A stretch of DNA of 4,125 bases from a virus (taxonomy: Duplodnaviria; Heunggongvirae; Uroviricota; Caudoviricetes). Positions 1 to 4,125 of this stretch are shown here, piece after piece. A program made the translations under genes and the position numbers. How positions within the stretch are numbered: position 1 is the stretch's first letter; each line of letters opens with the position of its first letter. The stretch lies in IMG/VR virus record IMGVR_UViG_2695420487_000011; one strand, given 5' to 3'. The notes beneath the pieces were generated by a model, which saw only the letters and a list, made by a program, of their open reading frames with translations, did not search any database and had not been told where the DNA came from.

Positions 1-66
1 ACTTTCCAGAACCATACGGACTGCCCGTTGACGGACTTCAGGGGAAAAACGAGTATTTTTAGTCAT
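1..66 (-). CDS. IS3-family transposase OrfA, N-terminal 22 codons only (partial, continues off the window)
   Basis: Minus-strand translation from the ATG at 66 down to 1 gives MTKNTRFSPEVRQRAVRMVLES, a helix-turn-helix N-terminus characteristic of IS629/IS1203/IS3411 OrfA. Too short for the six-frame ORF track to report. Confidence 0.65.
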   Translation of the reverse strand, partial: MTKNTRFSPEVRQRAVRMVLES

Positions 67-120
67 CCTGTTTACCTCTTTCTCAGGAAGTTTAGTCTCC
101 AGGATTCCCGGGGCGGTTCA
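1..120 (-). mobile_element. IS3-family insertion sequence (IS629/IS1203-like), terminal ~120 bp including one inverted-repeat end; element continues beyond the window start
   Basis: Reverse complement of 107-120 reads 5'-TGAACCGCCCCGGG..., the TG-initiated terminus typical of IS3-family ends. About 55 bp inside this end, a minus-strand ATG (complement of 64-66) opens an ORF reading MTKNTRFSPEVRQRAVRMVLES, which I recognise as the N-terminus of IS629/IS1203-type OrfA. Sid-like coding sequence begins immediately at 121. Confidence 0.7.
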
Positions 121-691
121 CGCTGATGACTGGCGCACAGCCTTTCGTGCAGCCGGTGGTGTCCTGAGCGACGAGCTGAAACAGCGCCACATTGAGCGCG
201 TGGCACGCCGGGAGCTGGTACAGGAATATGACAATCTGGCCGTGGTGCTGAATTTTGAACGTGAACGCCTGAAAGGGGCGTGTGACAGCACGGCCACCGC
301 CTACCGGAAGGCACATCATCACCTTCTGAGTCTGTATGCAGAGCATGAGCTGGAACACGCCCTGAATGAAACCTGTGAGGCGCTTGTCCGGGCAATGCAT
401 CTGAGTATCCTGGTACAGGAAAATCCGCTCGCCAACACCACCGGCCATCAGGGCTACGTCGCACCGGAAAAGGCTGTCATGCAGCAGGTGAAATCATCGC
501 TGGAACAGAAAATTAAACAGATGCAAATCAGCCTCACCGGCGAGCCGGTTCTCCGGCTGACCGGACTGTCAGCGGCAACACTCCCGCACATGGATTATGA
601 GGTGGCAGGCACACCGGCACAGCGCAAGGTGTGGCAGGACAAAATAGACCAGCAGGGAGCAGAGCTTAAGGCCAGAGGACTGCTGTCATGA
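121..691 (+). pseudogene. sid: sid-like capsid size determination (external scaffold) gene, 5'-truncated by the IS insertion; 3' portion of about 189 codons retained
   Basis: This frame is open from 32 to the TGA at 689-691, but 1-120 is IS sequence. There is no ATG/GTG/TTG in frame between 121 and the GTG at 200 that the ORF track uses as start (200..691, 163 aa). It sits immediately upstream of, and is translationally coupled to, delta in the conserved P4 order sid-delta-psu. P4 Sid is 244 aa as I recall, so roughly 55 N-terminal codons are missing. Confidence 0.65.
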
Positions 692-1188
692 TTTACTGCC
701 CGTCGTGTGGACATGTTGCTCACACCCGTCGCGCACATTTCATGGACGATGGCACCAAGATAATGATTGCACAGTGCCGGAATATTTATTGCTCTGCGAC
801 ATTTGAAGCGAGTGAAAGCTTTTTCTCTGACAGTAAAGATTCAGGAATGGAATACATTTCAGGCAAACAGAGATACCGCGATTCACTGACGTCGGCCTCC
901 GGCAGTATGAAACGCCCGAAAAGAATGCTTGTTACCGGATATTGTTGTCGGAGATGTAAAGGCCTTGCACTGTCAAGAACATCGCGGCGTCTGTCTCAGG
1001 AAGTCACCGAGCGTTTTTATGTGTGCACGGATCCGGGCTGTGGTCTGGTGTTTAAAACGCTTCAGACCATCACCCGCTTCATTGTCCGCCCGGTCACGCC
1101 GGACGAACTGGCAGAACGCCTGCATGAAAAACAGGAACTGCCGCCAGTACGGTTAAAAACACAATCATATTCGCTGCGTCTGGAATGA
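688..1188 (+). CDS. delta: Delta, P4-type late-gene transcriptional activator (fused tandem Ogr-like zinc-finger domains), 166 aa
   Basis: N-terminus MIYCPSCGHVAHTRR...CRNIYCSATFE is the Ogr/Delta Cys4 zinc-finger signature (CPxCxH...CxNxxCSATF). A second Cys4 unit follows (CCRRCKG...CTDPGCGLVF). The 166-aa length matches P4 Delta. Shine-Dalgarno AGAGGA at 674-679 lies 8 nt upstream, and the start overlaps the sid stop as ATGA (688-691). Confidence 0.92.
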   Translation: MIYCPSCGHVAHTRRAHFMDDGTKIMIAQCRNIYCSATFEASESFFSDSKDSGMEYISGKQRYRDSLTSASGSMKRPKRMLVTGYCCRRCKGLALSRTSRRLSQEVTERFYVCTDPGCGLVFKTLQTITRFIVRPVTPDELAERLHEKQELPPVRLKTQSYSLRLE

Positions 1189-1193
1189 GGGCT

Positions 1194-1209
1194 GCCGGTT
1201 AACACCGGC
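1194..1209 (+). other. Intercistronic stem-loop between delta and psu (GCCGGT-TAAC-ACCGGC)
   Basis: Perfect 6-bp inverted repeat with a 4-nt loop, 6 nt after the delta stop. There is no immediate T-run, so it is not a classical intrinsic terminator; possibly an RNA processing or attenuation structure. Confidence 0.35.
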
Positions 1210-1261
1210 CGTCGCCACACACCGTATTTTTATTCTTCAGCATGATGAGAAAGAGATAACG

Positions 1262-1834
1262 ATGGAAAGCACAGCCTTACAGCAGGCCTTTGACACCTGT
1301 CAGAATAACAAAGCAGCATGGCTGCAACGCAAAAATGAGCTGGCTGCGGCCGAACAGGAATATCTGCGGCTTCTGTCAGGAGAAGGCAGAAACGTCAGTC
1401 GCCTGGACGAATTACGCAATATTATCGAAGTCAGAAAATGGCAGGTGAATCAGGCCGCCGGTCGTTATATTCGTTCGCATGAAGCCGTTCAGCACATCAG
1501 CATCCGCGACCGGCTGAATGATTTTATGCAGCAGCACGGCACAGCACTGGCGGCGGCACTGGCACCGGAGCTGATGGGCTACAGTGATCTGACGGCCATT
1601 GCCCGAAACTGTGCCATACAGCGTGCCACAGATGCCCTGCGTGAAGCCCTCCTGTCCTGGCTTGCGAAGGGTGAAAAAATTAATTATTCCGCACAGGATA
1701 GCGACATTTTAACGACCATCGGATTCAGGCCTGACGCGGCTTCGGTGGATGACAGCCGTGAAAAATTCACCCCTGCGCAGAACATGATTTTTTCGCGTAA
1801 AAGTGCGCAACTGGCATCACGTCAGTCTGTGTAA
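1262..1834 (+). CDS. psu: Psu, polarity suppression protein (Rho antagonist / capsid decoration), 190 aa
   Basis: A 190-aa ORF immediately downstream of delta, matching the P4 sid-delta-psu order and the known length of Psu. A purine-rich SD (GAGAAAGAG) precedes the ATG. The ORF is followed by a hairpin and the cos site, as at the right end of the P4 genome. Confidence 0.8.
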   Translation: MESTALQQAFDTCQNNKAAWLQRKNELAAAEQEYLRLLSGEGRNVSRLDELRNIIEVRKWQVNQAAGRYIRSHEAVQHISIRDRLNDFMQQHGTALAAALAPELMGYSDLTAIARNCAIQRATDALREALLSWLAKGEKINYSAQDSDILTTIGFRPDAASVDDSREKFTPAQNMIFSRKSAQLASRQSV

Positions 1835-1867
1835 AATTCCCCGAAAATCCGCCCGTTTTTACTGAAA

Positions 1868-1898
1868 AAAGCCATGCATCGATAAGGTGCATGGCTTT
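1868..1898. terminator. Hairpin terminator-like structure downstream of psu (11-bp perfect stem, 9-nt loop)
   Basis: AAAGCCATGCA (1868-1878) pairs perfectly with TGCATGGCTTT (1888-1898). On the plus strand the stem is followed by an interrupted T-tract (TTTGCATGCGTTTCCC). On the minus strand it is followed by a clean T6 run (complement of A-run 1865-1870), so it may terminate in both directions. Confidence 0.45.
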
Positions 1899-1925
1899 GC
1901 ATGCGTTTCCCTGCCTCATTTTCTG

Positions 1926-1953
1926 CAGACCGCGCCATTCCCGGCGCGGTCTG
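1926..1953. repeat. Perfect 11-bp inverted repeat (CAGACCGCGCC / GGCGCGGTCTG) with 6-nt spacer in the cos-proximal region
   Basis: Read directly from the sequence. It lies about 45 bp upstream of the cohesive-end sequence; candidate terminase recognition or binding element, or structural element of the cos region. Confidence 0.5.
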
Positions 1954-1998
1954 AGCGTGTCAGTGCAACTGCATTAAAACCGCCCCGCAAAGCGGGCG

Positions 1999-2017
1999 GG
2001 CGAGGCGGGGAAAGCAC
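1999..2017 (+). other. cos site: 19-nt P2/P4-type cohesive-end sequence GGCGAGGCGGGGAAAGCAC
   Basis: Exact match to the 19-nt cohesive-end sequence that I recall as shared by P2, 186 and P4. It is positioned about 165 bp downstream of psu, as at the P4 right end, and is flanked by GC-rich palindromes (CCCGC-AAA-GCGGG at 1984-1996; GGTGCTCG 2033-2040 / CGAGCACC 2061-2068). Confidence 0.75.
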
Positions 2018-2071
2018 TGCGCGCCCCCGGTTGGTGCTCGTTACTAATGTTTTTTGCGCCCGAGCACCGTC

Positions 2072-2099
2072 GGGAAGGGGCTGGGGGGGATAGGGGAGG
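2072..2099 (+). repeat. G-run tract (GGG-aa-GGGG-ct-GGGGGGG-ata-GGGG-a-GG) fitting a G-quadruplex-forming pattern
   Basis: Four or more runs of at least 3 G separated by 2-3 nt, read directly. It sits just upstream of the point where composition changes from GC-rich backbone to AT-rich cargo. Confidence 0.4.
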
Positions 2100-2219
2100 T
2101 GCCTGACGTCGCGCGGTAATGTTGGTAAGTGTGCCGCTGATGGCTTCTGAGGGGAGTGGTAAATAGCCGCCTTTCGACGGTGTAGTGGGGAGAGTATTGC
2201 TTACAAACGTAATGAAATT

Positions 2220-2308
2220 GTTTGAGTAGCTAGGCTACTGCATAGGATTATTTTGTTCTGTTAATATATCCGTTAATATAGATAGATTGATCCAATTGAG
2301 TTTAAGGA
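2220..2308 (+). promoter_or_regulatory. Putative promoter/operator region of the 569-aa ORF
   Basis: AT-rich leader containing a 15-bp palindrome AGTAGC-TAG-GCTACT (2225-2239), a direct repeat GTTAATATA at 2260-2268 and 2272-2280 (12-bp periodicity), candidate -35 TTGTTC (2253-2258) with -10 TATAGA (2277-2282), and SD AAGGA at 2304-2308. Exact promoter elements cannot be fixed by eye. Confidence 0.3.
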
Positions 2309-4018
2309 ATGAGTATGTTTCAGATATCAGCTGGAGTGTTCTTTGATTTAGATAAAATAGAAAAACACGATGGCACATTTGTTTTTTATTCAAATGTTGA
2401 TGTGTCTTTCTCGGTGGAAAACACCTCCCCTCTTTTTAAAGCAAATAAAATAAGTCATGATGGTATAAACTGTTATGTGGTAAACTATACTCTCCTGACC
2501 GAAAAACCAGAACGAATTGAAGCTGGAGTCGTAGTTAGGGCTGGTGATGAGGATTATAGGCAACAATTTATTTTATTATGGGAATTCTATTTTGATTGTG
2601 TGGCTAGAGTAGAAAAAGAATCGGTTAAAAAAATATGTGCATTATCAAATTTTAATAAACATCACTCAAAAATTGCGCTTGAAGTTGCCCCATATTTAGT
2701 GGAGATTAATCGAAGAGTTTCATTTGATGATGTCTCTGGGTTTTCTGCTTTTATTAAAGATGTAGTGAATCTAAATAGATCTGCCTTTAAATCTTTAATG
2801 GCAGCGTTAAAAATAATTAGTGATTCAAAAGAATCATTGTCAACCAACTTTGACCTGACTTATTCCATGTTAGTCTATGCCTTGGAGTCTTTGTCTCAAA
2901 GAAATGATAACTATAAGTCTGATTGGGATGACTACGATCAAAAAACCAGAGGTGAATTAGAGTCTGTATTTGAGCATATGCCTGGTGAGGATGTTTGTAA
3001 AATTAAATCAATACTTATTGAAGGCAAACAATTCAGATTACAAAAAAGGTTCAAAGATTTTATACTGAAAAATCTTGAAGAAAATTATTTCAATGAAACA
3101 GAGAGATATCCAATCCGCTATAGCTTCCTTAGTAGAGCTTTAGATAATTTATACAAAATCAGGTCTTCTTTTGTCCATGAGCTTAAGCCACTTGATGCAA
3201 TGATCTCGAAAGCCTACAATCCTGTTGGTGATTGTCTGGTTCTTTTTGGCGAACCTCACTTCAGTTACTCTGGATTGCTTCGACTTCTTCGCCATGTGAT
3301 AATAAATTTTTGCCGTAAAAACTACAGTCAAAAAAGAGAGTCTGTTAATTGGGTGATGGAAACATCGGGTGTAATGGTTGCAGAGATATCTGCACAATAT
3401 TGGCTCTGGAATGCAGACGGATTTACAGCTAAAAGTATAGCGAAGTGGTTTAGTGAATACCTAAATATGTTAAATTTAGGCGAAGTCACTGATTTGCAGT
3501 CTATCATGGACAAAATTGAGATAATCTATGATCAATCCAAAAAAGAATATAAAAATGGGTTGTTGCATTTTTATTTCTTATATAACTTAATGCATAATGG
3601 AAATAAGGGTGAATGGCTTGAGTTTGCGAACAAGCGAAGTTCTATACTTGTTTGTGATATATATTGGTATTCATGCTCTCCATATTTATATAAATCATTT
3701 ACTAATGTTTCAAATGGTATTGCTGATATAAAAACATTGAGAAACTTTTTGTCTTGTTTTAACGAATATGATAAAAATAAATTTAAGCCAAATCGTTTAA
3801 ATCTCCCTGCAATGACCGAAGTAATTATGTTGGCTTGCGCAGCAAATTCATTCTTCAGAATTGGAATGTATCAAGACTATGTTTTAATGGGCAATAGAGC
3901 GATGAGAGAAATTGCTTCAGTAAAAGATGTATTTTATTATATAAAAGAACGATTAAGTAATTCACAACTTATTGAATTGGACGAGTGCTTGAGATTGTAT
4001 AGAAAAAAGGGGGGCTAA
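2309..4018 (+). CDS. Hypothetical protein, 569 aa, AT-rich foreign gene at the P4 psu/cos-proximal hotspot; candidate anti-phage defence protein with a single HEPN-like R-x4-H motif (R285...H290)
   Basis: Long uninterrupted ORF (1.7 kb) in about 30% GC DNA, where random stop codons would be frequent, so it is very likely real. SD AAGGA at 2304-2308 abuts the ATG at 2309; the in-frame ATG at 2315 has better 6-nt spacing and may be the true start (567 aa). No Walker A, PD-(D/E)xK or zinc-finger motif recognised. Motif KIRSSFVHELK (nt 3161-3178 encode R-S-S-F-V-H) fits the HEPN R-x4-H consensus. Family assignment not possible without a search. Confidence 0.85.
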   Translation: MSMFQISAGVFFDLDKIEKHDGTFVFYSNVDVSFSVENTSPLFKANKISHDGINCYVVNYTLLTEKPERIEAGVVVRAGDEDYRQQFILLWEFYFDCVARVEKESVKKICALSNFNKHHSKIALEVAPYLVEINRRVSFDDVSGFSAFIKDVVNLNRSAFKSLMAALKIISDSKESLSTNFDLTYSMLVYALESLSQRNDNYKSDWDDYDQKTRGELESVFEHMPGEDVCKIKSILIEGKQFRLQKRFKDFILKNLEENYFNETERYPIRYSFLSRALDNLYKIRSSFVHELKPLDAMISKAYNPVGDCLVLFGEPHFSYSGLLRLLRHVIINFCRKNYSQKRESVNWVMETSGVMVAEISAQYWLWNADGFTAKSIAKWFSEYLNMLNLGEVTDLQSIMDKIEIIYDQSKKEYKNGLLHFYFLYNLMHNGNKGEWLEFANKRSSILVCDIYWYSCSPYLYKSFTNVSNGIADIKTLRNFLSCFNEYDKNKFKPNRLNLPAMTEVIMLACAANSFFRIGMYQDYVLMGNRAMREIASVKDVFYYIKERLSNSQLIELDECLRLYRKKGG

Positions 4019-4125
4019 CCCATAAGCGCTAACTTAAGGGTTGTGGTATTACGCCTGATATGATTTAACGTGCCGATGAATTACTCTCACGATAACTGGT
4101 CAGCAATTCTGGCCCATATTGGTAA

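Follow-up and report, generated by a model that had tools for sequence, protein, structure and literature searches.

A central HEPN domain with a near-invariant R-x4-H motif in a single-gene cargo protein of an Escherichia coli P4-like satellite

The HEPN superfamily includes ribonucleases (RNases) such as the HepT toxins, AbiV, Csm6/Csx1 and the HEPN domain of AbiA, and its members are recognised by a conserved R-x4-6-H motif in which the arginine is followed by a polar residue, usually N, D or H, together with an acidic residue on helix 2 (PMC3710099). The composite active site formed by a pair of HEPN domains is general to the superfamily (bioRxiv 10.64898/2026.01.26.701840). ApeA (Gao_Ape) defends against phage as a single protein, a HEPN tRNA anticodon nuclease that 5'-phosphorylated deoxydinucleotides activate (bioRxiv 10.64898/2026.01.26.701840), DARNA is a HEPN tRNA anticodon nuclease with catalytic histidine H122, activated by single-stranded DNA (ssDNA) that is presented by the phage single-stranded DNA-binding protein (bioRxiv 10.64898/2026.02.22.705581), and DS-11 is a CBS-HEPN defence protein (DefensePredictor, PMC13092281). 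DARNA and DS-11 both combine a HEPN RNase with a sensing module in one polypeptide, and in both the catalytic R and H are essential. Such single-protein HEPN defences are at present a source of insight into the way in which infection cues activate RNases. Here we describe a gene in a stretch of 4,125 nucleotides taken from the virus record IMGVR_UViG_2695420487_000011 (Caudoviricetes), referred to below as the window, which is a piece of an Escherichia coli P4-like satellite prophage. The gene lies between psu and the satellite integrase gene, an interval documented as the antiviral hotspot of P4-like satellites (Rousset et al. 2022, PMC9122126), and we refer to it as the cargo gene. Its product has three domains, the central one of HEPN fold with a near-invariant R-x4-H motif, and it belongs to the HEPN superfamily in a family of its own, separate from that of ApeA. 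This family would add an architecture to those already described, a central HEPN domain followed by a TPR-like C-terminal domain.

The sequence-only reading of the window had drawn attention to the hexapeptide RSSFVH, residues 285 to 290, as a possible HEPN RNase signature. The motif is in frame at the position proposed for it and, as that reading also held, it occurs once: no other R-x4-6-H is present in the protein. (Residues are numbered here from the ATG at 2309; RefSeq places the start two codons later, so that these numbers are two too high for the RefSeq protein, in which the motif is R283...H288.) One such motif is unremarkable by chance, since 0.49 R-x4-H are expected from the composition of the protein and at least one was present in 39% of 20,000 shuffles, bearing out the caution with which the motif had been put forward. 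Its significance therefore comes from conservation in the family and not from its mere occurrence. A homologue search over 5.8 billion proteins yielded 70 relatives, 32 of which were aligned, down to 18% identity, and R285, S286 and H290 were among just 15 invariant columns in this alignment. An exhaustive profile search recovered 1,204 representative clusters at the 50% identity level (E <= 1e-3), and the best 150 of these were mostly full length, at about 560 to 620 amino acids. In an alignment of 184 sequences, comprising the query, close homologues and 50%-identity representatives, each of at least 500 amino acids, R285 and H290 were each kept in 182 and S286 in all 184, the extended active-site motif being completed by Y282 (184/184), L292 (182/184) and N280 (151/184). 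With R, S and H kept in 182 to 184 of 184 sequences down to about 18% identity, the interpretation of RSSFVH as a HEPN RNase signature is right in substance, the catalytic function itself being predicted from this conservation. The frequency of R-x4-H in the shuffles and the blank Pfam scan described below would both fit a chance motif in a helical protein of some unrelated fold, but its conservation in the 32-homologue and 184-sequence alignments effectively refutes this explanation, to which we give hardly any credence.

The other residues expected of a HEPN active site were sought in the same alignments. The residue after the arginine, S286, is polar yet atypical for HEPN domains. The upstream acidic residue is E193, in the segment A-L-E-S-L of HEPN helix 2, which was invariant among the 32 homologues and kept in 183 of the 184 sequences; R157, Y185 and W206 were conserved to the same degree in the larger alignment. 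The acidic residue directly after the histidine, which had been counted as part of the signature, does not hold that place: E291 was present in only 78 of the 184 sequences, and an acid at this position is not part of the HEPN signature. R285, S286, H290, E193 and Y282 (each two lower in RefSeq numbering) are the residues that we name as targets for mutation. It could be argued that this cluster of R, S, H, E and Y residues binds a nucleotide or nucleic-acid ligand or holds an interface, in which case the protein would be a HEPN-like non-nuclease serving as a sensor or scaffold, or acting through some other activity of its N- or C-terminal domain. Non-catalytic HEPN families are, however, those that have lost R-x4-6-H (PMC3710099), whereas here near-invariance extends to the arginine, the polar residue next to it, the histidine and the helix-2 acid, as in active HEPN RNases, and library scans detected no other enzymatic domain in the protein. 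We consider a non-nuclease improbable.

Structure prediction agreed with the assignment to the HEPN superfamily and served to define the domain layout. An AlphaFold model was made of the full-length protein (predicted local distance difference test [pLDDT] 85, predicted template modelling score [pTM] 0.65), along with a separate domain model. The N-terminal domain comprises a beta-sheet (residues 17-77) plus helices, the middle region is helical in the full-length model from about 135 to 340, and the C-terminal domain is all-helical, spanning 374-568 in the model. By structure comparison, the central domain is a four-helix up-and-down bundle, whose core helices, mapped from secondary structure, are H1 (157-177), H2 (181-199, bearing E193), H3 (271-291, ending with R285...H290) and H4 (320-337), with a three-helix insert at about 200-270 between H2 and H3 and a beta-hairpin at 309-318 between H3 and H4. 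A long helix, extending over 271-286 in the full-length model and 271-291 in the domain model, has R285 at its C-terminal end, as anticipated for a HEPN active site. H290 is within, or at the start of, the flexible loop behind this helix (287-292 in the full-length model). Low model confidence at 290-292 is compatible with a motif region that is flexible and partly non-helical, of the kind described for HEPN domains.

This layout differs from the one first proposed, in which an N-terminal sensor of about 270 amino acids preceded the effector. The HEPN domain is central, starting about 150 residues before the motif and ending about 50 after it, and the likeliest sensing part is the TPR-like domain at the C-terminus, which that proposal did not include. 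The C-terminal domain is presumed to be a sensor or oligomerisation module. It is the least conserved part of the protein, and the invariant residues cluster in the HEPN domain: of the 215 columns of the HEPN domain, 15 were conserved to at least 90%, compared with 4 of the 129 N-terminal and 1 of the 221 C-terminal columns, and the median identity to the query was 33%, 24% and 21% for these three domains, respectively. The family shows almost no variation in the segment M-[LF]-Q-I-x2-G-x-F-[FY] at the extreme N-terminus (residues 3-12; window 2315-2344) or at S28-N29, and Q5 and N29 do not vary at all in the 32 sequences. Such conservation is unusual for the first residues of a protein, and this part may be an autoinhibitory or interface element.

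Of the described systems, ApeA resembles the cargo protein in several outward features. Both are encoded by a single gene on mobile elements, are roughly 570-600 amino acids long and mostly helical, and contain one HEPN domain, and by eye their motifs are alike (WIALESL in ApeA and VYALESL in the cargo protein; IYRTRNxIVH and LYKIRSSFVH). For comparison, full-length Ec1, Ec2 and Ec3 ApeA were recovered from E. coli genomes by means of the DNA fragments in the supplement of the ApeA preprint, and a set of 120 ApeA homologues was compared with the cargo family by hhalign and by hmmsearch with shuffled controls. Membership of the ApeA family was rejected by curated models, profile-profile tests and domain layout alike. 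The PADLOC ApeA model, PDLC02157, matched Ec1, Ec2 and Ec3 ApeA at E values of 0, 1e-12 and 1e-10, but neither the query nor any of the 32 family members. With hhalign, the cargo family aligned to the 3 ApeA proteins or to the 120 homologues with a probability of at most 1.7% and inconsistently, and a hidden Markov model of the cargo HEPN domain scored -3 to 4 bits on ApeA in hmmsearch, under the shuffled controls (up to 12 bits). The NCBIfam library used by PGAP, by which Ec1ApeA is named "HEPN family anti-phage protein ApeA" in RefSeq, gave no match to the cargo protein. Finally, the HEPN domain of ApeA is C-terminal and split (335-583 in Ec2ApeA) and follows N-terminal and Mid domains, unlike that of the cargo protein, which is central and followed by the TPR-like domain. 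The mode of action is probably alike, the cargo protein being, by analogy, an autoinhibited RNase that an infection cue activates. In the complete E. coli genomes that served as sources of the ApeA references, we also observed that Ec2- and Ec3-type ApeA genes sit among tail and baseplate genes of P2-like prophages, and that the Ec3-type copy of strain EC416 is split into two open reading frames (ORFs).

Comparison with the remaining HEPN proteins likewise sets the cargo protein apart. It shares superfamily membership with HepT, AbiV, Csm6/Csx1 and AbiA, but lacks an MNT antitoxin partner and is fused to neither a CARF domain nor a reverse transcriptase; no partner gene of the HEPN-MNT kind was found in E. 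coli or in seven other contexts. Its N-terminal domain is unique to it, and the TPR-like C-terminal domain is a further distinction, as is the lack of any sequence match to a solved HEPN structure. DARNA and DS-11 differ from it in domain order and in their sensors (ssDNA and a CBS domain, respectively), have no PADLOC or other sequence link to it, and have a defence phenotype, whereas defence by the cargo protein is predicted only. Six P4 systems that received their names in 2026, Bandua, Aernus, Toga, Reve, Crouga and Hailong (PMC13586616), were also considered, and none fits the cargo gene.

Large, widespread and carried by satellites, prophages and plasmids, the family escapes detection by Pfam, NCBIfam, PHROGs and the PADLOC system models. 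Among library profiles, it is recognised by "Cas13-ApeA" of PADLOC alone (PDLC01679, 187 positions), which was the sole significant PADLOC match of the query (E 7.3e-6, residues 150-275) and was matched by 12 of the 32 family members, every other model being matched by at most one; Ec1, Ec2 and Ec3 ApeA do not match this profile. Literature searches on the names "HEPN-TPR" and "Cas13-ApeA" found no papers. Pfam HEPN_Apea (PF18739) gave no match to the query at E <= 10. It was the family most often matched by homologues, always below threshold (5 of 32, best E 0.011), and it was not matched by any of ten divergent members scanned against Pfam. The validated Ec1 and Ec2 ApeA proteins themselves miss this family at E <= 0.01, so the blank at PF18739 carries little information about an ApeA-type HEPN. 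When the HEPN domain alone was used in a word-indexed profile search, the matches were all fragments of the same family, with no Pfam-annotated relative among them.

Taken with the location of the gene and of its homologues, these properties suggest that the cargo protein is a HEPN RNase that remains autoinhibited until infection activates it and that then aborts the infection, a reading to which we assign a probability of roughly 0.6. The protein would be made constitutively and held in an autoinhibited state; a stand-alone RNase that lacks an antitoxin must be restrained by its own domains. Two HEPN domains would pair to form a composite, metal-independent RNase site. A cue of phage infection would then be sensed by the variable TPR-like C-terminal domain, the N-terminal domain or both, switching the RNase on; as the most variable part of the protein, the C-terminal domain would most naturally take the role of sensor. 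Among cellular RNAs, the active enzyme would most plausibly cut tRNA anticodon loops or other RNAs of translation (compare ApeA, DARNA, PrrC and RloC), whereupon translation would stop, infection would be aborted and the population of hosts carrying the satellite would be protected. There is a precedent for the central step in ApeA and DARNA, for which ligand-activated tRNA cleavage by a single HEPN protein is established (bioRxiv 10.64898/2026.01.26.701840; 10.64898/2026.02.22.705581).

Several observations weigh against this reading. Scans of the cargo protein against Pfam, NCBIfam and PHROGs gave no match, neither full-length nor domain alignments found anything in the PDB at E <= 10 by sequence or profile search, and a Foldseek search of the full-length model against the PDB returned nothing with E < 0.5. 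The position four residues after E193 is a nearly invariant glutamine and not K or R, so that the helix-2 acid stands in E-x3-Q instead of the usual E-x3-[KR], and H290 falls in a low-confidence loop of the full-length model. The same gene has, moreover, been assayed before. Rousset et al. listed WP_000486482 as "hypothetical" among the P4 hotspot loci (PMC9122126, Table S1A), and their plasmid pFR83, "HEPN-TPR", from E. coli ATCC 8739 (Table S2B of the same work), carries exactly this gene, encoding the protein MFQISAGVFF.... Table S2B holds the "additional tested systems" and Table S2A the validated ones (PMC9122126), which implies that no robust protection was reported for pFR83, whether in MG1655 with eight coliphages or in E. 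coli C with P2-like phages. This is the only experimental test known to us, and its outcome was not positive. The negative plaque assays, which are our chief reservation, may stem from a phage range that is narrow or from weak expression of the cloned fragment, and a recent study of P4 voices the same caveat about its own negatives (PMC13586616). The cloned sequence begins at window position 1746, and the construct depends on the native promoter. In our view, the question should not be considered settled by a negative from so small a panel of phages. The HEPN-TPR entry is a label in a supplementary table, with no published analysis of the motif, fold or family. A HEPN effector in the P4 hotspot, where such effectors are expected and where this label dates from 2022, will nevertheless cause specialists little surprise. 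Defence has also been predicted independently: DefensePredictor gives the protein a mean log-odds of 7.09 as a "Predicted novel defense gene" (scored in a different E. coli assembly, GCF_003334425.1) and reports it to be without homology to known defence proteins (PMC13092281). The cargo gene is absent from the supplementary tables of that study covering cloned systems, tested proteins and plaque assays.

The genomic contexts of the gene and its homologues bear on whether the role of the protein is defensive at all. Among 5,426 complete E. coli genomes, just 15 contain the cargo gene. Its product is annotated WP_000486482.1, "hypothetical protein", in E. coli ATCC 8739, where the gene stands alone between psu/cos and the satellite int, which lies next to ssrA. 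Several homologues have a similar position or adjoin defence genes. The Pectobacterium homologue is likewise the sole gene between psu/cos and int of a P4-like element, in a P4-type hotspot next to int and ssrA, that of Klebsiella lies in an island with a resolvase gene and an S24 peptidase gene, that of Aeromonas is in an integrase island and adjoins SIR2-HerA, that of Ferrimonas adjoins DUF4145, Ser/Thr kinase and PP2C genes, and that of Cellulomonas adjoins a large helicase gene and an AbiV-like HEPN gene. A Lacrimispora homologue (26% identity; 10001-11701) is a moron between the terL and portal genes of a prophage, with an unrelated 215-amino-acid ORF after it. Homologues are found on plasmids of Bacillus, Paenibacillus, Acinetobacter, Ralstonia, Bradyrhizobium, Nocardia and a cyanobacterium, and one gut phage contig carries a homologue. 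No conserved partner gene was present in the contexts examined, the downstream genes of three distant homologues being mutually unrelated, and the lack of a conserved neighbour implies a single-gene module.

These contexts can be set against the possibility that the HEPN RNase is real and its role something other than defence, either as an addiction toxin for selfish stabilisation or in RNA processing for the satellite life cycle, for example of helper P2 or host transcripts at induction. The gene directly adjoins the satellite cos and int, the Lacrimispora homologue lies between two prophage structural and packaging genes, and no defence was validated when the gene was assayed, all of which would accord with such a role. 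However, no antitoxin-like neighbour was seen in any context examined; the family also occurs outside satellites, beside known defence genes and on plasmids of unrelated phyla, and this distribution over islands and plasmids is easier to reconcile with portable defence cargo than with a function specific to P4. In addition, TIR-NLR alone among the P4-encoded systems acted on P2-like phages (PMC9122126). We regard a non-defence role as unlikely, if less so than a non-nuclease.

An infection-activated HEPN RNase could be fitted to these observations in a more specific way, which we offer as a tentative and rather doubtful proposal. The cargo protein may be the founding E. coli member of a broad uncharacterised family of single-protein immune sensors, comprising at least 1,200 clusters at 50% identity and spread over Proteobacteria, Firmicutes, Actinobacteria and cyanobacteria, on plasmids and in prophages. 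Its fast-evolving TPR-like domain, which resembles sensors that bind peptides or other ligands (Rap, NprR, PlcR and MalT), might directly recognise a phage protein or peptide and so free a central HEPN tRNase or mRNase that is otherwise held by the invariant N-terminal M-L-Q-I, and a correspondingly narrow phage range might have been missed by a classical coliphage panel.

Features of the window are collected in Table 1. The G+C content of the cargo ORF is 33%, against about 52-53% in its flanks. Its true start is almost certainly the ATG at 2315 rather than that at 2309, because the Shine-Dalgarno sequence AAGGA (2304-2308) abuts the latter and is 6 nucleotides from the former, because 31 of the 32 homologues have the N-terminus MFQ or MLQ, and because the RefSeq protein has 567 amino acids.

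Table 1. Coordinates of features in the 4,125-nucleotide window (residues numbered from the ATG at 2309)
Feature	Position	Strand	Residues	Remarks
End of IS3-family insertion sequence	1-119	-		Terminal repeat TGAACCGCCCCGGGAATCCT ends at 119; orfA transposase from 66, leftwards
sid, 3' part (P4 capsid size determination)	120-691	+		Cut by the insertion sequence; phrog_6165
P4 delta	688-1188	+		Ogr/Delta zinc-finger transcription activator
P4 psu	1262-1834	+		Polarity suppression protein; left border of the P4 defence hotspot
cos-proximal intergenic region	1835-2314	+		Presumed native promoter region of the cargo gene
Cargo gene	2315-4018	+		567-amino-acid HEPN-TPR protein, WP_000486482.1; listed ORF starts at 2309 (569 amino acids)
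N-terminal domain	2315-2701	+	3-131	Beta-sheet plus helices
HEPN domain	2702-3346	+	132-346	Central
A-L-E-S-L	2879-2893	+	191-195	HEPN helix 2; E193 at 2885-2887
Extended active-site motif N-x-Y-x2-R-S-x-[YF]-[VA]-H-x-L	3146-3184	+	280-292	
R-x4-H motif R285-S-S-F-V-H290	3161-3178	+	285-290	AGG TCT TCT TTT GTC CAT, in frame with 2309-4018
C-terminal TPR-like domain	3347-4015	+	347-569	About 220 amino acids, all-helical
End of IS4-family IS421/IS186-like element	4021-4125			CATAAGCGCTAACTTAAGGG...; annotated "IS4-like element IS421 family transposase"

Homology to intact satellites, in the genomes that carry the cargo gene, spans only positions 120-4021, and the insertion sequence ends on either side of it are context and not part of the system. 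The left end was identified from 100% matches annotated "IS3 family transposase" at 22,814 places across E. coli genomes. This element is inserted in sid, so that the capsid-size gene is truncated in this copy of the satellite. PHROGs labels phrog_6165 "polarity suppression Psu-like"; we name the gene Sid on the strength of a single RefSeq record ("sid: capsid size-determining scaffold Sid") and of its position upstream of delta, as in the P4 gene order, its counterpart in E. coli ATCC 8739 being annotated "hypothetical protein". On the right, int normally overlaps the end of the cargo ORF, and the IS421/IS186-like element has inserted 2-3 nucleotides past the cargo stop codon, inside the last codons of P4 int. 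The configuration with both elements was not found in any complete E. coli genome of the collection. A sigma-70 promoter scan upstream of the cargo ORF gave no convincing site on the + strand. Between psu and the cargo gene, in the cos-proximal region, a GC-rich hairpin at 1980-1999 (CCGCCCGCTTTGCGGGGCGG, followed by a T-run, on the minus strand) is the sole terminator-like site within 1800-4125.

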